From NCBI GenBank assembly GCA_020057555.1, contig JAGVFR010000026.1, positions 22,631 through 86,630 on the forward strand: DNA of 64,000 nucleotides. The letters run 5' to 3'. This stretch comes from a bacterium (GTDB lineage Bacteria; Patescibacteriota; Patescibacteriia; UBA9934; GWF2-40-263). The translations under genes and the position numbers were made by a program. Positions 6,453-59,563 of this stretch are shown in pieces (the stretch's first letter is position 1; each line of letters starts with the position of its first letter). Under the pieces are notes generated by a model, which was given only the letters and a program-made list of their open reading frames with translations, made no database searches and was not told the origin of the DNA.

Positions 6453-6525
6453 AGAGCGGTTGTGCTATGTCTCCGTGCCAGCGGACTCCTCGCCGCTGTT
6501 CACTTCGACATAGCACAACCGCTCT
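6453..6525 (-). repeat. conserved-core hairpin element, copy 1 (core on minus strand); terminator position downstream of prfA
   Basis: 19-bp perfect stem AGAGCGGTTGTGCTATGTC/GACATAGCACAACCGCTCT around a core that is the reverse complement of GAACAGCGGCGAGGAGTCCGCTGGCACGGAGACATAG; on the prfA strand it is followed by a T-tract. Confidence 0.7.
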
Positions 6526-11498: not shown

Positions 11499-11736
11499 AT
11501 TTATAATCGTCGTTTGGCTTGGGTAATGTGCTCAAGCGTGCGGCATGTTCTTTGGTTGCTGGGATGGAAAGACGGCTGTTCATTCAGTTGTTAATCCAAA
11601 AATGACCGGCAATACGGAGGGTCGAAAATGACAAAGTACAGTTTTCCTGCATGGTTCAAGGATTTGCAGGAACGTTAACATTGATAAGACTCCAGGTGAC
11701 AAGATATTCCTTGTGAAGCATTTCAATAGGGAGATC

Positions 11737-11994
11737 ATGTCCGAAGACGTAATAGTCGAGATGGACAAGTTCGGCTATCGTCCAGCAACTCACATCGAAG
11801 CATACGAGTTCCAGAAGAAGAATCCTGATCTTCAGCGTCAGTTTCTGCTCATCGCTCTTGGTTCGTTCGTGGTGATCGACTGCGGCCGGTGCTTCACTGT
11901 GTTGGGCGGTAATTCCGGCAGGCGCGTCTTCGACAGCCTCTGGTTCGACCGCAGGTGGCTTGCCGACTGCCGCTTTCTGTTTGTCCGCAAGTAA
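11737..11994 (+). CDS. hypothetical small protein
   Basis: AGGGAG SD before ATG 11737; ends at a clear terminator; C-terminal third is GC-rich. Confidence 0.35.
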   Translation: MSEDVIVEMDKFGYRPATHIEAYEFQKKNPDLQRQFLLIALGSFVVIDCGRCFTVLGGNSGRRVFDSLWFDRRWLADCRFLFVRK

Positions 11995-12009
11995 GGCTCT
12001 TTGTTCTCT

Positions 12010-12032
12010 GACCCGATCTCGGGTCTTTTTTA
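12010..12032 (+). terminator. intrinsic terminator
   Basis: GACCCGATCTCGGGTC hairpin plus T6. Confidence 0.7.
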
Positions 12033-12103
12033 ATTCCTTGTGTTAAAATGTTATCAATGAAGAACCACGGCTAAAACCGTGGGCTACAATAATTTATTTT
12101 TTT

Positions 12104-13111
12104 ATGCTCCGCATTGCAATCAATGGCTTTGGCCGAATTGGCCGCACAACACTTAAAGTCGGTTGGAAACGAAAAAATGTTGAGTTTGTCGCGATCAATG
12201 ATTTAACAGAACCGAAAATTCTCGCGCATTTACTCAAATACGATTCAGTGTTTCGAGCGTGGACTGTTCCAGTCAAAGCAGGAAAAGATTTTTTGTTGAT
12301 TGATAAGAAAAAAATTCCAGTGTTTACGCAAACTGATCCTGCTAAAATTCCATGGGGTGCTCACAAAGTTGATGTTGTGATTGAATCAACAGGAAGATTT
12401 ACAAAAACAGAAGACGCGAAAAAACATTTGCAAGCCGGCGCAAAGCGAGTTGTCATAAGTGCGCCATCAGATGACGCGCCGACTTTTCTAATGGGCGTGA
12501 ATCACAAAGATTGTCGAAAAGATCAAACAATCATCAACAATGCTTCATGCACAACAAATTCTGTCGGACCAGTTGCCCAGATTTTGGTTGAAGCGTTTGG
12601 TGTGAAAAAAGCAATGCTTTCAACAATTCATTCTGTTACAGCAGAACAAAACATTGTTGACAGTATTCCTCCAAAACTTCATCTTGATTTGCGTAGAGCT
12701 CGAAGCGCGCTTGTTAATCTTGTTCCGACAAGCACTGGCGCGGCAAAAGCAACAACTCAAGCAATACCATCACTTAAAAATAAATTTGATGGAATAGCTA
12801 TTCGCGTTCCAACGATTGATGTTTCGCTTACGGATTTTACTTTTCTTCTTTCAAAACAAACAACCGTTGAGGAAGTGAATCAAGTATTTCGCGATGCGGC
12901 GCGCGATCAACGTTGGAAAAATATCGTCGGAGTTACAGACGAGCCTCTTGTTTCAACTGATTTCATTGGTTCAACATTTGGAACTGTTGTTGATCTTGGA
13001 ATGACACGTTTAGTTGATGGCGATCTTTTGAAAGTTCTCGCGTGGTATGACAATGAGTGGGGATATTCGGAGAGGTTGATGGATATGGTGCAGTATGTTG
13101 GGAAGTTATAA
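12104..13111 (+). CDS. gap: glyceraldehyde-3-phosphate dehydrogenase
   Basis: NGFGRIGR NAD-binding motif and catalytic ASCTTNS motif. Confidence 0.95.
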   Translation: MLRIAINGFGRIGRTTLKVGWKRKNVEFVAINDLTEPKILAHLLKYDSVFRAWTVPVKAGKDFLLIDKKKIPVFTQTDPAKIPWGAHKVDVVIESTGRFTKTEDAKKHLQAGAKRVVISAPSDDAPTFLMGVNHKDCRKDQTIINNASCTTNSVGPVAQILVEAFGVKKAMLSTIHSVTAEQNIVDSIPPKLHLDLRRARSALVNLVPTSTGAAKATTQAIPSLKNKFDGIAIRVPTIDVSLTDFTFLLSKQTTVEEVNQVFRDAARDQRWKNIVGVTDEPLVSTDFIGSTFGTVVDLGMTRLVDGDLLKVLAWYDNEWGYSERLMDMVQYVGKL

Positions 13112-30178: not shown

Positions 30179-31334
30179 TATGTCAAAGAAACACTGGCTG
30201 ATTATTTTATCGCTCGTGTTTTTGATTGGAATCATTATCATTCTGAAGCCGTCCTTTTGGACGGATGAAGAATCTCGCGGGATCCTTCGTTTAACTCAAG
30301 ATGACAAAGGAGGACAGAGGACGACAGAGAATGAGGTGGTCGCACACATTCCTCTTCCAGACGAAGTTCGTGGATTATATTGGACAGCTTCAACTGCCGG
30401 TTCTGAACGATCTGACGAGTTGCTTTCATATATGAATGATCATGGACTCAATGCAGTTGTGATTGATCTTAAGATGGATAATGGTCAAATTGCGTTTATT
30501 ACAAAAGATGAAGCATTGAGTGTTTATCAACAAACAGAATCAGCGATTGGTGATTTAGATGGTCTTCTCACGAAACTTTATGATAGTGGAATTTATAGGA
30601 TTGCTCGTATTGCTATTATGCGCGACAAAAAGTTTGGAGAAATACATCCTGAATTTGCGATGAAACAATCAAATGGCAATTTTTGGACAGATAAAATTGG
30701 TTCAGTTTGGGTTGATCCTGCCGCCCCAGAAGTCGCGCAATATGCGATTGCGCTTGCGCGTGAAGCTTATGCACGTGGGTTTGATGAAGTTCAATTTGAT
30801 TATGTTCGTTTTGCTTCAGATGGATCAATAAACTCGATCGTCTATCCTGTTTATAGTGGAGAAAAAAGTAAGGTTGAAGTAATGCAGAGTTTTTTCAAAA
30901 CAGTTGGAGAAACAATGCAGAAAGAAAAAATTCCTGTTTCGTTTGACGTTTTTGGTATGACTTTTTGGTCGTTTGATGATTTCAACATTGGCCAGCGACT
31001 TATTGATGTGTTGCCTTATGCTGACTTTGTTTCACCAATGGTTTATCCGTCTCATTATGTTGACGGGTTTGAAGGTTTTGCGAACCCGGCTGAATTTCCG
31101 TATGAGATAGTTAAGCGTTCGCTTAATGAAGGAACGAGAATAATTCACGGTTTTTACGCTGATTCAGATGTTGAACTTCGCGCGCATTGGAGGCCGTGGC
31201 TTCAGGATTTTGATATTGGCGCAGTGTATACATCTGATTTGGTTGAAGCGCAGATAAAAGCGACTCGCGATGCTGGCGCTTCTGGTTGGATACTTTGGAA
31301 CGCTCGCAATGTGTACGAACCCGCGGATTATTAA
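30165..31334 (+). CDS. putative TIM-barrel glycoside-hydrolase-like protein (GHL/DUF4015-like)
   Basis: N-terminal TM; LNAVVIDLK block resembling COG1306-type predicted glycosidases; weak. Confidence 0.45.
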   Translation: MKQNNMSKKHWLIILSLVFLIGIIIILKPSFWTDEESRGILRLTQDDKGGQRTTENEVVAHIPLPDEVRGLYWTASTAGSERSDELLSYMNDHGLNAVVIDLKMDNGQIAFITKDEALSVYQQTESAIGDLDGLLTKLYDSGIYRIARIAIMRDKKFGEIHPEFAMKQSNGNFWTDKIGSVWVDPAAPEVAQYAIALAREAYARGFDEVQFDYVRFASDGSINSIVYPVYSGEKSKVEVMQSFFKTVGETMQKEKIPVSFDVFGMTFWSFDDFNIGQRLIDVLPYADFVSPMVYPSHYVDGFEGFANPAEFPYEIVKRSLNEGTRIIHGFYADSDVELRAHWRPWLQDFDIGAVYTSDLVEAQIKATRDAGASGWILWNARNVYEPADY

Positions 31335-31335
31335 A

Positions 31336-31405
31336 GGAGCGTGGAGCTGTGTCGCAGGGAACAGCGGCGAAGAGTCCGCTGGCCCGGAGACATAGCTCCA
31401 CGCTC
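31336..31405 (+). repeat. conserved-core hairpin element, copy 2; terminator position after the GH-like gene
   Basis: Stem GAGCGTGGAGCTGTGTC/GACATAGCTCCACGCTC around core GCAGGGAACAGCGGCGAAGAGTCCGCTGGCCCGGA; followed by ATTTAATTTATTTTTT. Confidence 0.7.
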
Positions 31406-31423
31406 ATTTAATTTATTTTTTGT

Positions 31424-48144: not shown

Positions 48145-48233
48145 AATCACTTTCATAGGATGGTTGTTTTCTTGTGGCGTATTGCTTAACATACTCGATA
48201 GCGTGATCTATCCGCACTAACATAGTTAACCGA

Positions 48234-48308
48234 GGATCAGTTTGCATCATGTCGTAAGGAACAACGGCGAAGAGTCCGTTGGCCCGGAGATATGGTGCAA
48301 ACTGATCC
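48234..48308 (+). repeat. conserved-core hairpin element, copy 4
   Basis: Stem GGATCAGTTTGCATCAT / ATGGTGCAAACTGATCC around core GTCGTAAGGAACAACGGCGAAGAGTCCGTTGGCCCGGAGAT. Confidence 0.7.
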
Positions 48309-48314
48309 TAGATT

Positions 48315-49364
48315 ATGTACCCACCTCTTTCAATTCACATAGTTGCATGGAACTCCATGCGTTTTCTGCCTGATTTATTTAAAAGTTTGTCTAATCAGAC
48401 ATACCGAGATTTCAATATTCTTGTAATTGATAATGGTTCAACCGATGGCGTGGAAGCTTACATACGTGAACATTATCCGGAAATTACAATTTTACGCAAT
48501 GCCCGCAATCTAGGTTTTTCAGGTGCACACAATCAGGGAATTCGTTACGCACTCGAACATTGGGAACCGTCTAGCTATAAAGATAATTTTGTTTTGGTTA
48601 CAAATCCGGATTTGATTTTACCACCTAATTTTGTTGAAACGCTCATGCGTGATGTTTCATCTCATCCAACAGTTGGAGCATTTGGTGGAAAATTGCGCCG
48701 CGCGTTTGGTGAGAATCTTACTGACGAAGCGCTTCAGGAAACAATTCAATCTGATCTAATTGATTCAACAGGTTTGCATGCTCACAAAAATAGATCATTT
48801 ACGGATCGTGGAGCAGGTGAAATGGACAAAGGTCAATACGACGAGTCGCGTGATGTGTTTGGAATTTCAGGAGCGCTTGTTTTGTATCGTGCCGCGGCAC
48901 TTGACGATATTCGTTTCGAAGATGAATTTTTTGATGAAGATTTTTTTGCGTACAAAGAAGATGTTGATCTTGCTTGGCGGCTTCAGCGATTTGGATGGGA
49001 TGCACGTTTTGTGTCAGAAGCGGTTGCATTTCATTATCGCGGAATGTACGCGCCTGAAAAAATTGGCATTGTTGCGCGAATCAAAAATCGTCGAAACAAG
49101 TCAAAGCTACGCAGTTATTATTCAAACCGAAATCAATGGTTGCTTCTCGCGAAAGATCTTCCATTTATTGATTTTCTGTTCGCTTGCGTTTGGATAGTTC
49201 CATCGGAAATTGGAAGATTCATTTTTACTTTATTGTTTGAGACGAGGAATACACTAGCTTTCATTGATGCTGTCAAACTTTTTCCGCGTATGTTTAGGAA
49301 ACGTTTATGGATTAAGAAACATCAAAAGCGATCTTCAAAAGAACTTCGTCGATGGTTCAAATAG
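48315..49364 (+). CDS. family-2 glycosyltransferase
   Basis: ILVIDNGSTDG GT2 motif; 349 aa. Confidence 0.8.
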   Translation: MYPPLSIHIVAWNSMRFLPDLFKSLSNQTYRDFNILVIDNGSTDGVEAYIREHYPEITILRNARNLGFSGAHNQGIRYALEHWEPSSYKDNFVLVTNPDLILPPNFVETLMRDVSSHPTVGAFGGKLRRAFGENLTDEALQETIQSDLIDSTGLHAHKNRSFTDRGAGEMDKGQYDESRDVFGISGALVLYRAAALDDIRFEDEFFDEDFFAYKEDVDLAWRLQRFGWDARFVSEAVAFHYRGMYAPEKIGIVARIKNRRNKSKLRSYYSNRNQWLLLAKDLPFIDFLFACVWIVPSEIGRFIFTLLFETRNTLAFIDAVKLFPRMFRKRLWIKKHQKRSSKELRRWFK

Positions 49365-53174: not shown

Positions 53175-54341
53175 ATGGAAAAGGAGGTTAACTTTTTACA
53201 CGATTCTCATTCAGCAATTTTTGCGATTGATGCTTCTTCGGCTAATAAAGATAAACGAACAGGAGTTGAGAATTACGCGTTTCATTTGATTGAAGCAATG
53301 AAAAAAGAACCGCTCAAGGTGGGAGAGCGTGTTGTTTTATTTTCACCAACTCCTTTGCAAGGAACACTTGCACAAATGCCAAGCAGTTGGGAATCACGTG
53401 TTCTTGGTTGGAAATTGAAGCGCGGATGGATGCAATTGCGTGTGAGCTGGGAATTGCTACGACGTCGGTCGTCAGTTTTTTTTGTACCGGCGCAAGGAAT
53501 TCCAAATTTTTCATTTCGTGTTTTAATTGTCACAACGATTCATGACATTGCTTTTCGTCGTATTGGAAATTTATATAGTTCGTCAGTTCGAAAACGTGTC
53601 GCGTCTGCAACATCACGCGCAATAAAAAAAGCAGAGCATCTTATTAGTGTTTCTCAATTTACAAAAGAAGAATTGAAAACCGTTTACAATGTTTCTGAAA
53701 CAAAAATTACAGTCACTCCACTTTCTGCGGCAACAGAAATATACAAACGTTTAGACGCGAAAGCGATCGAATTGGTTTTACAAAAATACCGTTTGGGTCA
53801 TAATTTTTTCTTGTTTGTCGGACGATTGGAAAAAAAGAAAAGCGTTTCAACAATTATTCGAGCGTTTGAGTTGTTCAAACAGAATCGCGGAATGGGAGAT
53901 CCCTTTGAGCTTGTGCTTGTTGGTGAGCAAGGATTTGGGTATGAGGAAATTAGAACGTGCGTTGAACGTTCACCACAACGAACACTGATTCGCGAAGTCG
54001 GTTATCTTTCTGATCAAGAAGTTTCTGCACTGATGAATGTCTCGACCGCATTATTGTTTCCATCATTATATGAAGGATTTGGAATTCCAAACCTTGAAGC
54101 AATGGCTTGCGGAACAGTTTTGTTAACATCGGATATTCCAGTTCATCACGAAGTCGCAGGCCCTGCCGCGATTTATATTTCACCCAAAGACCCAGAGTTG
54201 TGGGCAAAGCAAATGACTCGACTGGTAGCTGATCCACTGCTCCGCGAACGATTGATTGAAAATGGAAGTATTCGTGTTGCAGAATTTTCTTGGGAGAAAA
54301 CCGCAAAACAGACATGGGAAGTTCTGCGTAGTTTGGTATAA
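53175..54341 (+). CDS. family-1 (GT4-like) glycosyltransferase
   Basis: EGFGIPNLEAMACGTVLLTSD GT1 C-terminal motif; start at ATG 53175 after the mreB stop (ORF opens at 53064). Confidence 0.85.
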   Translation: MEKEVNFLHDSHSAIFAIDASSANKDKRTGVENYAFHLIEAMKKEPLKVGERVVLFSPTPLQGTLAQMPSSWESRVLGWKLKRGWMQLRVSWELLRRRSSVFFVPAQGIPNFSFRVLIVTTIHDIAFRRIGNLYSSSVRKRVASATSRAIKKAEHLISVSQFTKEELKTVYNVSETKITVTPLSAATEIYKRLDAKAIELVLQKYRLGHNFFLFVGRLEKKKSVSTIIRAFELFKQNRGMGDPFELVLVGEQGFGYEEIRTCVERSPQRTLIREVGYLSDQEVSALMNVSTALLFPSLYEGFGIPNLEAMACGTVLLTSDIPVHHEVAGPAAIYISPKDPELWAKQMTRLVADPLLRERLIENGSIRVAEFSWEKTAKQTWEVLRSLV

Positions 54342-54371
54342 TCACTCCATTACTCCATCACTTTTTAATCT

Positions 54372-55148
54372 ATGGACGAATTAATGAACGAACTCAAGCA
54401 TTTAGGTTTATCTGACAAAGAGGCGTCTGTTTATCTTGCATCGCTTGAACTTGGCCCAGCTTCTGTGCAAGACATATCGCACAAAGCAAAAATAAATCGC
54501 GCGACAACATACGTGATGATAGAGGTATTGTCAGGACGTGGACTTCTTTCAACTTTTGTAAAAGGGAAGAAACGTTTTTACGCGCCAGAAAGTCCTGATC
54601 GATTGATTTCCATTTTACGCGTGCAACAGAAAGAACTTGAAGAAAAAGAAAAAGAGTTTGCAAAGTCGCTTCCATTGTTGCTCGCGCTTTATAATGCTGA
54701 AGGAGCAAAGCCGCAGATTCGATATTTGGAAGGGCCAGAAGGATTGCGATCTTTGCGTCAGACTTTTGAAAAATTGAATGGGGAATTTGTTCAGATTCTT
54801 TCGATTGACGATGCGTTGGCAACAAGAGAACTAATGGAAGAAAGTCCGAAACATGTTTCCGCTCTTCGACAAGCAAGCACTTCTTATAGAATTTTGGCAG
54901 TTTTAGATAAGAAGGAACCAAAAGATATTCCGGAGATGGGAACAGGCGAAATTAGAATGGTTCCGTTTTTGGAGTTTCCAATGCACGGTGAGATTACCGT
55001 GCGAGGAAATCATGTGTTTTTGTTTTCATATCGTTCAGCAGTTTTGGCTGTTGTGATTGTAAGTAAAGAGGTCGCTGATGCGGCTCGGGCATTGTTTGAG
55101 CTTGCTTGGAAAGGAGCAAAAGATTTTCAATCAAGAATGGATAAATAA
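54372..55148 (+). CDS. TrmB-family transcriptional regulator
   Basis: N-terminal LGLSDKEASVYLASLELGPASVQDISHKAKINRATTYVMIEVL wHTH typical of TrmB-like regulators. Confidence 0.7.
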   Translation: MDELMNELKHLGLSDKEASVYLASLELGPASVQDISHKAKINRATTYVMIEVLSGRGLLSTFVKGKKRFYAPESPDRLISILRVQQKELEEKEKEFAKSLPLLLALYNAEGAKPQIRYLEGPEGLRSLRQTFEKLNGEFVQILSIDDALATRELMEESPKHVSALRQASTSYRILAVLDKKEPKDIPEMGTGEIRMVPFLEFPMHGEITVRGNHVFLFSYRSAVLAVVIVSKEVADAARALFELAWKGAKDFQSRMDK

Positions 55149-55677
55149 CAAAATAGGACCGAGTGTGGTCCGTTGTTGAGAGAGATAAGATATGAGAGAA
55201 GCGCAACAATGTGCGCGAGAGCTTTTTTATGTGAAGCTAGAAAAGGAGCTACGATCCGAGAGCACAATGCATGTGCGGTTGGAGAAACGCCGGATTGAAC
55301 CGACGCGGGTTGAGTTCGTTTGCGTACGTTTTGAGAACCATTCCTGCTTCCATTTTATTACCTCGGACTTTGCCGGCTTGGCCTGCCGGCCAGGCATCTC
55401 ATCCAAAACTTTTAGGATGAGAATATACTCTAGCAATTTTTGTTGATTTTGTCAAGCCAATTGGACTGACTAAGAAGAATTTGGAGAATTTGTTGATATT
55501 TATTAACATATTTTGTCCTGTGACCATTGACAAGCAAAAGATTATTTGATAGTTTGGTCGGTTCACTCAAGAAGTGGGCAATGAGGAAGAGAGGACATAA
55601 AACCGACCAACTCCCAATGGCCGGTTTTATCTTAGTCGAAACATGGTACATGGGTTCATGTGTGTGATAAACAAAAA

Positions 55678-55708
55678 GACGTCCTGTAAACAGGGCGTCT
55701 TTTTTTTG
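55678..55708 (+). terminator. intrinsic terminator with no upstream CDS (possible sRNA 3' end)
   Basis: GACCGTCCTG-TAAA-CAGGGCGTC hairpin followed by T8; TTGACA at 55527 and the hairpin 55554-55610 lie upstream. Confidence 0.55.
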
Positions 55709-55718
55709 GGAAAGAGCT

Positions 55719-55838
55719 ATAGCCATCACATTATAAAATGGGACTTTAGACGACTTACCTGTGGATGGGATGCGAAGGACAAGCAGACCGCCACAGGAAA
55801 GGATGGATAAATCCTATTTCATAATGTGATGGCTATAC
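55719..55838. repeat. 120-nt element bounded by perfect 17-bp terminal inverted repeats
   Basis: TATAGCCATCACATTAT ... ATAATGTGATGGCTATA; internal CCTGTGG...CCACAGG and GGAT..ATCC sub-hairpins. Confidence 0.6.
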
Positions 55839-56186
55839 AGTCTTGCGACCGCGCGGTCGTTGGACATTACATTATGATTCCGTACTTATAAAGATGAAAA
55901 ACAAGCAGGTTGCCATTTTTAATTTTTTATGGAGTATGGAACCATAATGTAATGTCCACATTCCTCTCACAGGTCTTCATTGCAAGCATGGAGCAATGGA
56001 AAACTGTGATTGGAGGGCGACGTTGGAAAGATATCCTTCGTCGCCCAAGAGTTTGCCTTCTCGGCTGGAGGCTCTGCTTCCTCTTGGCTCACCGTTTTAG
56101 GAAGGTGACTCCTTTTTGTCGCGTGTTTCAGATTGTAGTGGAATGTGTTAACTCACTTTGCCCTCCTAAATGTTTGGTTTTTTTGG

Positions 56187-57197
56187 CTACGAGAGCATGG
56201 CCTGGAGCTTGAGCTCGGCCATACGGATCACGCCAGGAACCGTCCAGTTCTTGATCGCACGGACGTCCGCGGCGGTCAGACCAGAGTTGCGAATTTTGAT
56301 AGCCGCGCGACCGAGTTGACGGTACTCGTCCTTGCTCACGCCCGGGACGATCTTGCCCTGAACGCGGCGTGGCGGACGAACCAGACCTAGACCGCATGCG
56401 AGCAAACTTCCGTCGCGCAGGGTTTCGACGTGCGAGCGAGTTTCGGCGATTCTTGCGTCAACGCGTTCTTCGGCCTCGCGCTGAAGCCGTGCTTCCTCGG
56501 TCGCTCTCTCGTCCGCGAACATATTCTCGATTGCCGCCATTGCCTCGGGCACGGTCTGCGATCCGAGCGGCAGAACGGTCTGTGCGCACTTGGGGCAGAA
56601 CGACTTCTGAAGGAGACCATGAACGGTCACCTCCTCGAGCCTCTTGACCCCGATAGCGCGCATGATTGTGCTGAACACGACCGCGACCCTTGCCTCGTTC
56701 ATCGGAACGAGTCGCAGACACTGTCCGAACTTTCCCTGACAGACCACGTGGTCCACGCCGTCCTTCGCAATGACGAGTCCCGGGGTGAACCTGACCTCGG
56801 GCTCGAGAACGGGCTCGGGCGCTGGAGCGGGTGCGGCGGGAGCCTTCTTGGTCTCGGCCTTGTGGACCTTGACCTTCGCCGGCTTCGGTGTCTCGACCTT
56901 CGGAGCCGGGGACGGGTTGGCCTCGGTCTTGGGCGAGACGATCTCCTTGGCCATGATTTCGACAGCCTCGATCGAGGAGCAATCCCTCCAGTTCTGGCCC
57001 GTGACCTCGATGATGTGCATGGCGCGACCGAGCTCGACGTGGGATGCGAGGAAGTTGATCGAGCCCTCGAAGTGACGCTCAACCACACGGCCGAGCTCTT
57101 CGAGTTCGCCAGGGAGACCGGGGCGGGAGTCGTCCTGCGGGATGATCTGAAGTCCGGGAGCCATCTGCGCGACCATGCGTAACCTCCAAAAAAGCAT
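56187..57197 (-). CDS. hypothetical protein on high-GC island (orphan, Pro/Ala/Lys-rich linker)
   Basis: Minus-frame codon positions sampled at 56761-56820: GC1 75%, GC2 40%, GC3 85%; GC switches to host-like at the stop codon; other overlapping ORFs are GC artefacts. Confidence 0.6.
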   Translation of the reverse strand: MLFWRLRMVAQMAPGLQIIPQDDSRPGLPGELEELGRVVERHFEGSINFLASHVELGRAMHIIEVTGQNWRDCSSIEAVEIMAKEIVSPKTEANPSPAPKVETPKPAKVKVHKAETKKAPAAPAPAPEPVLEPEVRFTPGLVIAKDGVDHVVCQGKFGQCLRLVPMNEARVAVVFSTIMRAIGVKRLEEVTVHGLLQKSFCPKCAQTVLPLGSQTVPEAMAAIENMFADERATEEARLQREAEERVDARIAETRSHVETLRDGSLLACGLGLVRPPRRVQGKIVPGVSKDEYRQLGRAAIKIRNSGLTAADVRAIKNWTVPGVIRMAELKLQAMLS

Positions 57198-57312
57198 GTG
57201 TCCTGGGTCCCGAACCTACACCACGTAGGAACGGATCAATTTATAGAACCTATCGGTCCTACGACCTTAGCAGTTTGGAAATTGTTATACCTTGAGCGAA
57301 GGAAAATTACTG

Positions 57313-57337
57313 CCTTCGACAGGCTCAGGCAATAATT
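57313..57337 (+). repeat. dispersed 25-nt repeat copy between the two high-GC genes
   Basis: Exact match to 8908-8932; flanked by AAATTACTG/CAATAATTT. Confidence 0.8.
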
Positions 57338-57463
57338 TGCCGGAGTCGGAGGGTTAGATTCAATTTCTAAACTATTAAGATCGTTCCGGGTGGCGTGTTC
57401 AGGGAAAGAAATCCCTTTACACACCACCCGGAAGATATAGAGCGGAGAGAGCGGAAAGAACTA

Positions 57464-58003
57464 CTAGCCGTTGGCGACCTTGCGGGCCTTGCCCTTGACG
57501 GTCACGATCGGCGTCTCGACGGCGGCGGGAGCCTCGGCGGGCGTGGAGACCGGAGCCGGTGTCACGGCGACCGCGGCCTTGAGCTCGGCCACAACCTGCG
57601 GGCCGACCTGCTCACCGATCGGGGTCGAGGCGAGAGCAGGCTTGGCGGGTGCGGAAGCGGCGGGCTTGGGCGTGAGCTTCGGCGCGGGCTTCTCGGACTT
57701 GGACTTCGGGAAGTAGGACATCGTGTTGACCATGTCCTTGAAGTCCAGGAGCGGTGCGAGGGCCGAGTTCTGCCCCATGCCGTGCTCGATGTTGTCGATG
57801 GCCTTCGTGAGAAGGGCCTTTCCGACGTCTTCGATGCAGCGCATGGTGTAGTACTCGGTGCCGACGTAGTCGTCGCGCTTCTCCGGGTCGAGGCCGAGCA
57901 CCTCGCACGCCTTCGCGAAGATCTTGTCGCGCAACTCCCTTTCGAAGATGCGTCCGTAGAGCGGGGAGGGATCGGTCGAGGGGGCCTGGAAGCTGGTCTT
58001 CAT
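57464..58003 (-). CDS. hypothetical protein on high-GC island (orphan, Pro/Ala/Lys-rich tail)
   Basis: GC3 20/20 in a sampled 60-nt stretch; N-terminal globular part then KPAPKLTPKPAASAPAKPALAST linker and a Lys-rich C-terminus. Confidence 0.6.
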   Translation of the reverse strand: MKTSFQAPSTDPSPLYGRIFERELRDKIFAKACEVLGLDPEKRDDYVGTEYYTMRCIEDVGKALLTKAIDNIEHGMGQNSALAPLLDFKDMVNTMSYFPKSKSEKPAPKLTPKPAASAPAKPALASTPIGEQVGPQVVAELKAAVAVTPAPVSTPAEAPAAVETPIVTVKGKARKVANG

Positions 58004-58573
58004 TGAAATTCTCCTTTTCGATGGCCTGCCTCCAGCCGAACCTGACCCCTGTGGTCAAATCCGCTTTCAGCTCGATGACGGCAAATGTTGTCACCATTGA
58101 GCTGAATCGGATTTTCCCAGAAATACGGAGGTAAAGTGTGACCCATTGACCTGCCCGAAGGCTGGTGTAGATCGTGAGTCTCTTGCGTATGAATTCAGTC
58201 AGCCTAGGCCGAATGAACACATTTGAGACTCTCTGCCAATGTCGTCTTGTAAGACTCGATTGGACAGCTTTACTCTCTCCTCCGTGTTTCTGGGTCGGTT
58301 TTTAACAAAAAACCGGTTGTCGTATATATCTGATCTTTTTGGCAAGAGTCAGACGTACACAACAACCGGTTCTTTTATTCAAAGAATGGCTATTGACTAC
58401 CTTTATACCGTGGGTAGTGCACGGACTCTCTCCCAAAAGTCCTATTTGTAAGAATCATCTTAACGGTCATACTATATCATATTCTGTCAAAACTGTCAAG
58501 ACCCGTATGTCGGTGAGGTTAGAATTTTAGCTAAAATTAGACAAAAGCTACTGTCAGGATTTTTTAGACTTAT

Positions 58574-58620
58574 CACTCCGTCACTTCTTCACTCCGTCAC
58601 TTCTTCACTCCGTCACTTTG
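58574..58620 (+). repeat. tandem 16-mer CACTCCGTCACTTCTT x3 directly upstream of holB
   Basis: Seen directly; related CACTCCATTACTCCATCACT at 54340-54366 upstream of the TrmB-like gene. Confidence 0.7.
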
Positions 58621-58639
58621 TGTTACACTAAAATCTGTT

Positions 58640-59563
58640 ATGGAACCTTTTTCTAAGACGATCGGCCACAAAACGGCACGACAAGTGTTTTTGCGCATGA
58701 TAGAAAACAACCAGCTTCCGCATGCGATTCTTTTTGTTGGTCCAAAACATGTTGGGAAAACTCATCTTGTCACAGAATTGATCCAGCATCTTTTTCATAC
58801 AATACGTCATCCATCGCTCATTTCCGATGTTAGTCTTTTAGCAAGAGAAGTTGATCCAAAAACAGGCAAGAAAAAATTCGCTATTTCTGTTAAACAAGTT
58901 CGTGCTCTTGTTGAACGTCTTTCAATGACTCCAATGGAAGGAAATTGGAAAATCGCGTTCATTCAAGAAGCTGATCGGCTTTCGATCGGAGCCGCGAATG
59001 CGCTTCTCAAAACACTTGAAGAACCAAAAGGAAACGCTCTTATAATTTTACGCGCGCCAAGTGTTGAATCTGTTTTGCAAACAATCGCGTCTCGTTGTCA
59101 GATTTTTCGACTGTCGCCTGTTGCCAAATCAGAAATTATTCCAGCGCTTCAAAAACGTGGGCTTTCAAAAACAGAAGCAGATGAAATTTCAGAGCGATCT
59201 TTTGGTTGTCCGGGAATTGCGATTCGATATATTCAAGATAGTGAAATGCGCGCGCGCAAAGAAACAGCGATCGCGCAAGTCGAAACTTTAATGAACGCGT
59301 CGCTTCCAGAGCAATTTAGATTAGTTTTTGATCTCATTCCAAAAACAGAAATTGACAAGTCTATTGCACTTTCTCATTTGCTCGATGATTGGTCAGAAGT
59401 GTTGCGCGCGAATTTATTAAAAACAGTCGCTGAAAAGCAAACAGCAACCGTGAATAAAACCGCTCGCGTTCTAAATTGTATTCAAACTGTTCGTAGCGCG
59501 ATTTCTCACAACATAAATCCTCATTTATCTTTAGAACATATTTTTTTATCAACACATGTATGA
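58640..59563 (+). CDS. holB: DNA polymerase III delta' subunit
   Basis: AAA+ Walker A GPKHVGKT and delta-prime layout. Confidence 0.8.
   Translation: MEPFSKTIGHKTARQVFLRMIENNQLPHAILFVGPKHVGKTHLVTELIQHLFHTIRHPSLISDVSLLAREVDPKTGKKKFAISVKQVRALVERLSMTPMEGNWKIAFIQEADRLSIGAANALLKTLEEPKGNALIILRAPSVESVLQTIASRCQIFRLSPVAKSEIIPALQKRGLSKTEADEISERSFGCPGIAIRYIQDSEMRARKETAIAQVETLMNASLPEQFRLVFDLIPKTEIDKSIALSHLLDDWSEVLRANLLKTVAEKQTATVNKTARVLNCIQTVRSAISHNINPHLSLEHIFLSTHV

Follow-up and report, generated by a model that had tools for sequence, protein, structure and literature searches.

What occupies the 1-kb spacer (55149–56186) that separates trmB from the genes upstream of holB in the genome of a member of Candidatus Uhrbacteria, within the candidate phyla radiation? 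The spacer was analysed as part of a 64-kb stretch of DNA, hereafter the window. Its neighbours are a GT4 glycosyltransferase, TrmB, holB and high-GC ORFs without a known family, and the GC content steps from ~0.42 to ~0.63 at position 56187. An earlier, sequence-only reading had taken the region for ORF-free, hairpin-dense DNA at the left junction of a foreign island. Comparing the spacer with related loci (labelled L and a number), we put the probability at roughly 70% that it combines features of four ordinary kinds, with new examples in two cases: a small gene, a plus-strand promoter–terminator unit, two hairpin elements and a hairpin tail. The features are as follows.

55156–55171, both strands: predicted two-way terminator T1, hairpin GGACCGAGTGTGGTCC, serving trmB (plus) and the small-gene mRNA (minus).
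55249–55353, minus strand: short open reading frame (sORF) of 34 codons plus stop, translated as MEAGMVLKTYANELNPRRFNPAFLQPHMHCALGS, with the Shine-Dalgarno sequence GAGGT 6 nt upstream of its ATG.
55354–55422, minus strand: predicted 5′ leader of the small-gene mRNA, with a hairpin at its very 5′ end (55397–55422) and a GC-rich one at 55376–55395.
55427–55455, minus strand: predicted promoter P(-), TTGACA, 17-nt spacer and TG-n-TAGAGT, 10/12 consensus matches, with the TG.
55527–55555, plus strand: predicted promoter P(+), TTGACA, 17-nt spacer and TAGTTT preceded by TGA (extended -10 TGATAGTTT).
55554–55563, 55601–55610 and 55618–55630, plus strand: mutually exclusive pairing segments X, X′ and X″, with TTTTAT after X″.
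55640–55661, no strand assigned: remnant right arm of a ~95-nt hairpin; relatives have this hairpin intact, and the window has lost the left arm and the loop.
55678–55707, both strands (predicted): terminator T2, an 11-bp G+C-rich stem plus T8, 14 pairs with three A-U added, z = -5.5.
55718–55837 (core 55720–55835), plus strand: element A, with TA on each side and ~63 nt lost internally relative to the 179-nt family.
55846–55859, no strand assigned: palindrome P1, CGACCGCGCGGTCG; L017 and L022 have longer versions of this hairpin, of which P1 is the minimal form.
55861–55958, plus strand: element B, a member of a second subfamily shortened by deletion, present in this genome only.
55968–56008, no strand assigned: nearly invariant hairpin P2.
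56015–56046, no strand assigned: nearly invariant hairpin P3.

The hairpins, palindromes, TTGACA and inverted repeats named in the sequence-only reading were all present within 1–4 nt and were far more stable than shuffled sequence. The TTGACA at 55527 and the 10-bp stem of 55554–55610 (55554–55563 / 55601–55610) were exact; a hairpin placed at 55160 was located at 55156–55171, a palindrome and hairpin near 55385–55430 at 55376–55395 and 55397–55422, a hairpin with T8 at 55678–55708 at 55678–55707, an element of 55719–55838 with perfect 17-bp terminal inverted repeats (TIRs) as a repeat at 55718–55734 / 55821–55837, and the palindrome after it at 55846–55859. Element B (55861–55958), the minus-strand promoter (55455–55427) and the hairpins at 55968–56008 and 56015–56046 had been missed. 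The independent RNA genes that it had envisaged correspond to no Rfam family: the whole 64-kb window gave 0 matches at gathering score, region 54000–59500 gave chance-level matches only at E<1, and 17 related loci gave tRNAs only.

Judged from copy comparisons and from filled and empty sites, elements A and B are non-autonomous, mobile-type copies of a single ~179-nt, TA-flanked, rod-shaped family. The window copies measure 116 and 98 nt, compared with 179 nt for full-length members. The perfect 17-nt inverted repeat of element A (29 nt at 90%) occurs nowhere else in the 64 kb, where 0.06 chance matches are expected, and the 120 nt fold as a single hairpin (-62.7 kcal/mol, z = -11.9); the fold of element B reaches -43.6 kcal/mol (z = -7.7). 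Element A is inserted 12 nt after T2, and element B directly after palindrome P1. Site 1, where element A sits, has an insertion in the window, L004, L010 and L013 but none in L003 or L024. Site 2 carries element B in the window and a different full-length member in L003, and is empty in six others. The nearest relative of element B lies at a different locus (L024, 1822–2000), and extra family copies occur at unrelated loci in L023, L024 (two) and L029 (two). A search of 41 groundwater-metagenome loci, 11 being contigs of one sample, gave a family-model match in 29, most of them full length. The TIR-bounded element is thus real and repeated, with dozens of copies elsewhere, found both in relatives and at metagenome loci.

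As with miniature inverted-repeat elements (MITEs), the family is non-coding, shorter than 300 bp and bounded by TIRs, and it occupies many unrelated sites, filled in some loci and empty in others. All copies are intergenic, often 2–10 nt from the flanking ORFs, and the family ends read TAGTC...ATGAAAC. A full-text literature search returned no earlier description of a MITE-like repeat of the candidate phyla radiation; the family appears to be previously undescribed and apparently the first of its kind for these bacteria. Most copies are flanked as TA/.../TA, often CTA/.../TAG (slashes mark the junctions). Since insertions lie at TA, often CTAG, an IS630/mariner-type transposase acting in trans would be the expected mover. 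A putative 2-bp TA duplication is suggested by the many TA...TA flanks; the two empty versions of site 1 read GAGCT/GGTC, with no clean single TA, and site 2 has GT, not TA, on the left.

The family resembles several known repeats. Correia/NEMIS of Neisseria, ERIC and RUP are non-coding, intergenic repeats of 100–200 bp with TIRs and 5′-TA-3′ ends with target duplication (PMC2229807); they come in two size classes, which differ by an internal segment of ~50–60 bp, and their transcripts are long stem-loops (PMC2229807); the movement of RUP to TA targets is attributed to IS630-Spn1 (PMC2229807). The hairpin family is like them in length, intergenic place, TIRs, TA ends, size classes and stem-loop fold, but shares no sequence similarity with them and resides in a candidate-phyla-radiation bacterium; moreover, its 179 nt form one rod with an asymmetric core, its arms covary, one strand is favoured and it has no known partner IS. 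YPAL/RU-2 repeats of Yersinia insert beside or across dyad symmetry (PMC2229807), and elements A and B are likewise inserted beside dyad symmetry; YPAL, unlike the hairpin family, lacks TA termini and has variable duplications of 3–26 bp.

Across 26 distinct copies, 95.9% of cells are paired and 44/68 pairs have changed on both sides, a level reached in 0/500 shuffles (slid controls were ~40% paired). The mismatches are asymmetric, with 103 G.U against 16 A.C (25 against 6 by column, p = 0.0009), and by this measure the element fold is selected on one strand only. Orientation relative to host genes shows no bias (7 same, 9 opposite). One-strand selection without orientation bias is not expected of a plain cut-and-paste DNA element.

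An alternative is that the elements are mobile or multi-copy structured RNA, or a single-stranded-DNA element, instead of transposase-driven MITEs, with the one-strand fold needed for their spread or activity. In favour of this, the arms covary rather than retain a single transposase-binding sequence, the wobble counts and the unbiased orientation are as given above, and the family core is conserved and asymmetric, with direct GGATGGAT repeats; further, no autonomous IS with matching ends was found in ~1.5 Mb of loci, where end matches were the elements themselves only. We nevertheless regard it as unlikely. The TA...TA flanks and frequent CTA/TAG context fit IS630-type insertion, the size classes by internal deletion and the insertion beside dyad symmetry are like those of the Correia and YPAL families (PMC2229807), and G.T is the least destabilising mismatch in DNA hairpins as well. 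No Rfam ribozyme or RNA family matches the elements, full-length copies hitting plant hairpin-precursor models only, far below threshold. A bolder proposal, which we consider distinctly doubtful, makes the rods a mobile structured nucleic acid whose core and one-strand fold reflect an RNA or ssDNA intermediate in its own mobilisation, e.g., as guide or recognition RNA of a recombinase whose gene lies elsewhere; separately, it holds that Parcubacteria could possess, in the 34-aa Cys...Gly-Gly peptide, a core small protein or cofactor scaffold that annotation has missed altogether. Our preferred reading remains that A and B are MITE-like copies.

The left part of the spacer, comparison with relatives shows, holds a conserved, never-annotated 34-codon gene with its own predicted promoter and terminator. 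The statement that the region contains no credible coding sequence therefore fails: the minus-strand ORF at 55249–55353 lies below the usual ORF length cut-offs and is conserved as protein in dozens of relatives. Its Shine-Dalgarno sequence, start codon and stop position are conserved among relatives, and substitutions by codon position number 19/16/40 over six close pairs; frame, start, ribosome-binding site, amino-acid-level conservation and codon-position bias are all those of a protein-coding gene. Homologous peptides, 26–59 codons long, were found in >25 loci whose TrmB proteins are 37–94% identical, each with the same promoter type and 5′ hairpin before it and a terminator after it. The N-terminus is variable and the C-terminal motif P-x3-C-x2-3-G-G/S, with an invariant Cys, is conserved in 32/77 related loci at the same position and on the same strand; the strict motif is absent from the opposite strand (0/77), and 447 kb of control sequence contained it 3 times. 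The window peptide, part of which reads ...NPAFLQPHMHCALGS, ends in ...LQPHMHCALGS, and L024 retains a peptide ...HPAFVRPTMHCPYGTM although the DNA there is past BLAST alignment. Minimal related loci consist of trmB, the sORF and holB only, and loci as compact as L085 and L074, whose 500-nt gap contains no island, still have the sORF. One exception is a sub-clade (L038, L050, L051, L053, L054, L056) with an unrelated 135–222-aa protein at the small-gene position. Gene callers recorded only ~12 homologs among 5.8 billion predicted proteins.

A single minus-strand promoter of this type lies 240–880 nt downstream of trmB in 62/76 loci, and a 5′-terminal hairpin follows it in nearly all loci. In the window, TTGACA-17-TGCTAGAGT would drive an mRNA of ~270 nt from the small gene (55150–55455, minus strand); its first 26 nt would form a hairpin that may protect the 5′ end, followed by a second hairpin, the GAGGT site, the 34 codons and the two-way terminator shared with trmB. 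The two leader hairpins (TCTCATCC...GGATGAGA at 55397–55422 and GCUUGGCC/GGCCAGGC at 55376–55395) folded together give -26.5 kcal/mol (z = -4.4), the leader fold as a whole has z = -3.2, and its pairs are preserved on the minus strand despite U-A to U-G and G-C to U-A changes. T1 consists of a 5-bp GC stem (RNA fold z = -3.5) with the better T-run, and a terminator-like match, on the minus strand (TATTTTGTTATTT). Its pairs are all kept in 5/5 sequences, and L017 and L022 carry counterpart hairpins with a minus-strand T-run. T1 and T2 both have the sequence make-up of intrinsic terminators.

Could the left unit (55150–55420, minus strand) instead be chiefly a structured non-coding RNA, with the 34-codon ORF incidental or secondary? 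Its transcript has a strong predicted fold (-81.7 kcal/mol, z = -4.0); the Shine-Dalgarno region is joined to a CU-rich 3′ segment by a long-range helix, whose G.U variants are compatible with the minus strand only; and in the group with TrmB at 43–45% (L064–L076) no comparable ORF was found behind the same promoter. We judge this explanation quite improbable, since the peptide motif is conserved across lineages with unalignable DNA, third-position substitutions are in excess, start codon, Shine-Dalgarno sequence and stop position are conserved, and the covariation term of the consensus fold is just -0.36 kcal/mol. Identity of the minus-strand unit with RNase P, SRP, 6S or tmRNA was dropped because no model or ARAGORN match was obtained and the ORF accounts for the conservation.

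The peptide has no Pfam or NCBIfam match and matches no known precursor family. With no detectable family and only the ~12 recorded homologs, its role is a guess: a small protein with metal or thiol activity, or a peptide that serves as a scaffold and has the invariant Cys and the C-terminal Gly-Gly/Ser at its centre. Unannotated sORFs of <50 codons and peptide precursors share with it the tiny size, strong own (predicted) promoter, Shine-Dalgarno sequence, terminator, variable N-terminus and conserved C-terminal core; it differs from peptide precursors in lying beside trmB and holB and not in a biosynthetic cluster. Genes for a modifying enzyme, transporter or protease are absent from the surroundings of the sORF, which thus lacks the RiPP-type cluster of a RiPP precursor. 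When the peptide family was used as a profile query, the top match was a 2115-aa eukaryotic Cys-repeat protein; it was judged spurious, only its DP..L.LC...CPC repeat being matched. Separately, an 84-aa plus-strand ORF called by one gene caller was discarded on account of a frameshifting 4-nt indel in L004; the 84-aa and 100-aa ORFs of the region had no match in Pfam, PHROG, NCBIfam or PDB sequence searches.

In the middle of the spacer, P(+) would drive a non-coding transcript of ~150 nt from the unit 55527–55707, ending at T2. Its 5′ part could adopt two exclusive folds, X:X′ or X′:X″ followed by a U-run, a layout that resembles an anti-terminator/terminator switch. The X segments are conserved in relatives, with one U.G and one A-U/G.U variant. 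The ~150-nt sRNA suggested earlier gains from a usable extended -10 and from a promoter and 5′ hairpins that are near-invariant in six close relatives (the TTGACA and TGATAGTTT boxes do not vary at all, and a few spacer bases do); it loses from the absence of the unit in L022, its degeneration in L017, many indels in the 3′ half and the lack of an Rfam match. Similarly, the unit is like intrinsic-terminator-bounded sRNA genes and attenuator leaders in its promoter, exclusive hairpins (one with a U-run) and strong terminator, but unlike them has no downstream gene to regulate, no conservation past the immediate clade and an unstable 3′ half. From these comparisons, the unit would be either a young regulatory RNA or an orphan promoter, and it may be the latter rather than a functional sRNA. 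A 27-codon plus-strand ORF behind P(+) was rejected, its frame not being conserved in the alignment (read by hand).

T2 itself keeps 92% identity in L022, which lacks the P(+) unit, and 86% in L017, which has a degenerate one. As its stem is flanked by an A-run and the T8 run, it could terminate in both directions, and it probably ends not only the P(+) transcript but also that of the minus-strand high-GC operon. P2 and P3 are invariant in 6 sequences, a conservation above that of the coding sequence, and the P3 stems are wholly different in L017, L022 and L013. Compensatory changes are found in the tail hairpins (CACAG/CTGTG, CACAA/TTGTG, CCAGA/TCTGG). The hairpin module lies directly 3′ of a stop codon in L024, L017 and L022, and P2 and P3 are probably part of the 3′ tail of the 336-aa gene on the minus strand. 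The P2 wobbles, read by eye, give a contradictory strand signal (the window has its U.G on the plus strand, L022 on the minus strand). The T2-P1-P2-P3 module was seen in three lineages only, and MAFFT misaligned the distant sequences. Most likely, 55846–56186 without element B, i.e., three covarying hairpins, would together with T2 make up the untranslated 3′ tail, with terminator, of the high-GC operon on the minus strand.

Finally, it is very improbable that the region is non-coding or attachment-site debris on the left border of a high-GC island acquired recently, with independent ncRNA genes: the sharp GC step at 56187, two island ORFs without family matches and a trmB–holB gap ranging from 69 nt to 8.9 kb among relatives, so that insertions do occur at the site, speak for it, whereas the spacer is 77–95% conserved, block by block, in relatives with identical gene content and order, its blocks are kept in L024 though the 336-aa gene is absent there, its leftmost third is a protein-coding gene found even where there is no island, and attachment-site features (tRNA, integrase, or long direct repeat in 55100–56250) are lacking. 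Specifically, no tRNA gene occurs anywhere in the 64-kb window; the repeat search, covering the spacer and island junction (55100–56250), returned no long direct repeat there; and there is no recognisable integrase in the island, since its two high-GC ORFs have no Pfam match. Their proteins likewise had no match in PHROG, NCBIfam or PDB sequence searches, the 336-aa protein had none among viral contigs, and the region had none by BLASTN in phage and plasmid collections. An AlphaFold2 model of the 336-aa protein (5 sequences) reached a pLDDT of 49, too poor for a fold search. The island is at the same place in L003, L004, L009/10 and L013, and a high-GC segment between trmB and holB was seen in nearly all Uhrbacteria loci examined. 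The spacer is very probably not debris at a foreign-island edge, and the "island", in the loci examined, belongs to a variable hot spot that Uhrbacteria share, as a lineage, between trmB and holB.

Candidate-phyla-radiation genomes are tiny and heavily studied by metagenomics, yet in Uhrbacteria and some other Parcubacteria a conserved gene with a strong predicted promoter has been overlooked by annotation because it is only 26–59 codons long. Peptidomics and genetics gain a concrete target in its invariant Cys and C-terminal Gly-Gly/Ser. With its unusually clean covariation and its strand asymmetry, the hairpin family is a good test case for movement via a single-stranded intermediate, and its elements can serve to mark recent genome change among groundwater populations that are closely related. 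What had looked like a foreign island is recast as the variable trmB–holB hot spot of a whole lineage.

The sequence-only reading described the spacer at 55149–56186 as an ORF-free, hairpin-dense left junction of a foreign high-GC island. Every structure it listed was found, at most 1–4 nt off, and measured against dinucleotide shuffles the hairpins are far more stable (z = −3.5 for the hairpin at 55156, −4.4 for the pair at 55376–55422 and −5.5 for the T8 terminator). Its 120-nt element folds as a single continuous hairpin (−62.7 kcal/mol, z = −11.9), and the 17-mer inverted repeat that bounds it is unique in the 64 kb, with 0.06 matches expected by chance. Overlooked were a second long hairpin at 55861–55958 (z = −7.7) and a minus-strand consensus promoter (55455–55427) with a small ORF. 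The observations largely stand and the interpretation stands in part: the element and a promoter–terminator pair exist, while the absence of ORFs and an origin as island debris do not hold. The main features are:

54372–55148, plus strand: TrmB-type regulator
55353 to 55249, minus strand: small ORF, translation MEAGMVLKTYANELNPRRFNPAFLQPHMHCALGS
55718–55837, fold favoured on the plus strand: hairpin element A, core 55720–55835 with TA on either side (alignment; filled and empty sites)
55861–55958, fold favoured on the plus strand: hairpin element B (alignment; window only)
58640–59563, plus strand: DNA polymerase III delta' (holB-like) protein

Other genes around the spacer encode a DUF4012 protein, MreB and a GT4 glycosyltransferase, and the window has ~40% GC. 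With the TrmB protein as query, species-representative genomes yielded 80 loci (L numbers below), nearly all from Candidatus Uhrbacteria or other Parcubacteria; the top relative is a groundwater MAG with 94% TrmB identity. The order GT4–trmB–gap–holB is maintained across all 80, with gaps of 69 nt to 8.9 kb, and almost every Uhrbacteria locus has a 65–80% GC segment inside the gap, independent of genome GC. Since a second, independently assembled contig from the same sample also spans the GC step at 56187, this junction is no artefact peculiar to one assembly. The 336-aa high-GC ORF adjoining the spacer has only five homologous clusters in 5.8 billion proteins, and their contigs carry the identical order trmB, spacer, 336-aa gene, 179-aa gene, holB. 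The spacer is 77–95% conserved in blocks, with hairpin-sized indels between them (BLASTN and multiple alignment), and L024 retains the blocks without the 336-aa gene. From block conservation, gene order and L024 it follows that no recent foreign insertion left the spacer as its scar; the spacer is the conserved edge of a variable hot spot common to the whole lineage. The 65–80% GC segment of the gap (window 56187–58003; L013–L062) contains fast-evolving ORFs and occurs even in genomes of 41–47% GC; frequent recombination is one guess at the source of this high GC. Between the GT4 gene and trmB, one relative only (L003, 13262–13618) carries an inserted gene for an Avd-like/23S-rRNA-intervening-sequence protein (PF05635, PF22296).

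The supposedly ORF-free interval contains a minus-strand small gene, which with its predicted promoter and terminator spans 55150–55455 (ORF at 55249–55353). A search for TTGACA-N16–18-TAnnnT on the strand opposite trmB, over 900 nt downstream of it, gave exactly one match in 62 of 76 loci, most with a TG extension, against an estimated chance expectation of ~0.02 per locus. The matches sit 240–880 nt from the trmB stop, directed towards trmB, and the promoter adjoins holB where the gap is ~500 nt. The predicted transcripts would start with a hairpin and end with a hairpin and T-run just before the trmB stop; in between, a GGAG-type ribosome-binding site precedes reading frames for peptides of 26–59 residues sharing ...(N/D/H)P-x2-(L/F)-x-P-x-(M/Y/L)-(H/I)-C-x2-3-G-(G/S) at the extreme C-terminus. 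The strict motif occurs on the ORF strand in 32 of 77 loci, on the trmB strand in none, and 447 kb of control sequence contains it three times. Conservation among relatives extends to the ribosome-binding site, the start and the stop, substitutions number 19, 16 and 40 at codon positions 1, 2 and 3 (six close pairs), and L024 retains the motif as HPAFVRPTMHCPYGTM although its nucleotides are beyond BLAST alignment. Together these findings indicate that the small ORF is translated. The GCCTGCCGGCCAGGC palindrome and TCTCATCC hairpin would then be the 5' leader of its mRNA, and the hairpin at 55160, with its better T-run on the minus strand, its putative terminator, shared head-to-head with trmB.

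The peptide has no model in Pfam or NCBIfam, and the 5.8 billion and 1.84 billion proteins searched contained no more than about a dozen called homologs, none of them named. A classical peptide-natural-product cluster is disfavoured because no modifying enzymes lie near the ORF. In L038, L050, L051, L053, L054 and L056 an unrelated acidic protein of 135–222 aa replaces the small ORF; in this L038 sub-clade it lies downstream of trmB on the opposite strand, with a similar promoter in front.

Alignment showed the site of A to be filled in the window, L004, L010 and L013 and empty in L003 and L024. At exactly the position of B, L003 has a different, 177-nt family member, and six other sequences are empty. 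Full-length members measure ~179 nt, and A and B are internal-deletion derivatives of them; in A, ~63 nt were lost between GCGAAG direct repeats. The family profile found additional copies at unrelated sites in L023, L024 (two, one of which takes up the whole of a 190-nt intergenic spacer) and L029. A core-pattern scan of public metagenomes yielded 41 loci, 29 with a family-model copy, mostly full length, on contigs of 41%–58% GC (11 from one sample). The flanks of most copies read TA|TAGTC...GACTA|TA, often inside CTA|...|TAG. All are intergenic, frequently 2–10 nt from flanking ORFs, and relative to co-directional neighbours seven have the same and nine the opposite orientation.

The consensus of 26 distinct copies is a single rod with 95.9% of cells paired and changes on both sides in 44 of 68 pairs; none of 500 shuffles reached these values, and slid controls pair at ~40%. 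G·U pairs outnumber A·C mismatches (103 vs 16; by column 25 vs 6, p = 0.0009), so the fold is favoured on one strand, the window plus strand for A and B alike. In Rfam the sole matches were plant hairpin-precursor models scoring far below threshold. Correia, ERIC, RUP and YPAL form a bacterial MITE class, of which RUP is linked to IS630 (PMC2229807). Our family shares with them small size, inverted ends, TA termini, two size classes, insertion beside dyad symmetry and long stem-loop transcripts, the last predicted here (PMC2229807); we therefore file it as a new MITE-like family. A TA-targeting transposase acting in trans probably mobilises it; no partner IS turned up in about 1.5 Mb of the retrieved loci. 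Full-text literature searches gave no report of MITEs in Patescibacteria or of non-coding RNAs of Uhrbacteria. Five other long intergenic hairpins in the window (6453–6525, 31330–31412, 48227–48315, 57384–57433 and 58307–58375; arms 19–30 nt) fall outside the family by profile search. A REP-like palindromic motif, GTAGCCGCAGGCTTTAGCCTGC, occurs three times in the L003 spacer (11500–12140) and once in L004 (~2270–2300), and is not present in the window.

A small RNA had also been proposed between a plus-strand promoter at 55527 and the T8 terminator, T2 (55678–55707). The promoter (TTGACA, 17 nt, TAGTTT with a TG extension) and terminator are real; across six relatives, both boxes and roughly the first 85 nt hardly vary, and no conserved ORF follows. 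Segment 55601–55610 pairs alternatively with 55554–55563 or with 55618–55630, which is followed by TTTTAT, a layout resembling an anti-terminator/terminator; these segments show a single U·G and A–U/G·U variants, with decisive covariation absent. Further downstream lies, in relatives, a ~95-nt hairpin with a 34-nt loop that has opposite orientations in different lineages (identity 30/34 and 31/35 to the reverse complement vs ~21/37 direct); half is missing from the window, and L003 has a different sequence in its place:

55640–55661, window: right arm only
L004 ~1700–1790; L010; L013 11270–11385; L024 11290–11375: ~95-nt hairpin

The promoter is missing altogether from L022, which retains the terminator, and the unit is degenerate in L017. 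Possible readings of the unit are a young regulatory RNA and an orphan promoter; we consider a dedicated function rather unlikely.

In the right third (55846–56186, B excluded), palindrome P1 (55846–55859) is the minimal form of a hairpin 40–45 nt long in L017 and L022. Hairpins P2 (55968–56008) and P3 (56015–56046) are invariant in six close sequences and surpass the adjacent coding sequence in conservation; compensatory replacements occur in P2 (CACAG/CTGTG, CACAA/TTGTG, CCAGA/TCTGG), and L013, L017 and L022 have wholly different P3 stems. The module starts within ~10–25 nt of the stop codon that ends the minus-strand high-GC ORF (L024, L017, L022) and ends at T2, whose A-run/stem/T-run symmetry would permit termination on both strands. 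The simplest reading is that module and T2 would be the conserved 3' tail and terminator of the high-GC operon; wobble pairs did not decide the strand. The near-consensus operon promoter (58499–58471, minus strand; TTGACA-17-TATAGT with TG, 11/12 matches) precedes the 179-aa high-GC gene by ~470 nt, which implies a long structured 5' leader (58004–58464), divergent from holB. A non-coding block at 58117–58235, whose conservation extends to at least 15 Uhrbacteria loci and which has no Rfam family match, brackets the high-GC ORF as two direct copies in L018, L019, L020 and L055; it could be a cassette boundary, leader element or recombination site. A short repeat lies between both high-GC genes, with several copies in the closest relative:

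57261–57355, window: ~95-nt short repeat
L013 13005–13096, 13804–13867, 18384–18461; L017 5084–5111: other copies

Overall, two things are new here: a widely conserved micro-gene that lacks annotation, and a family of hairpin repeats in the candidate phyla radiation. Both belong to already known kinds of feature.
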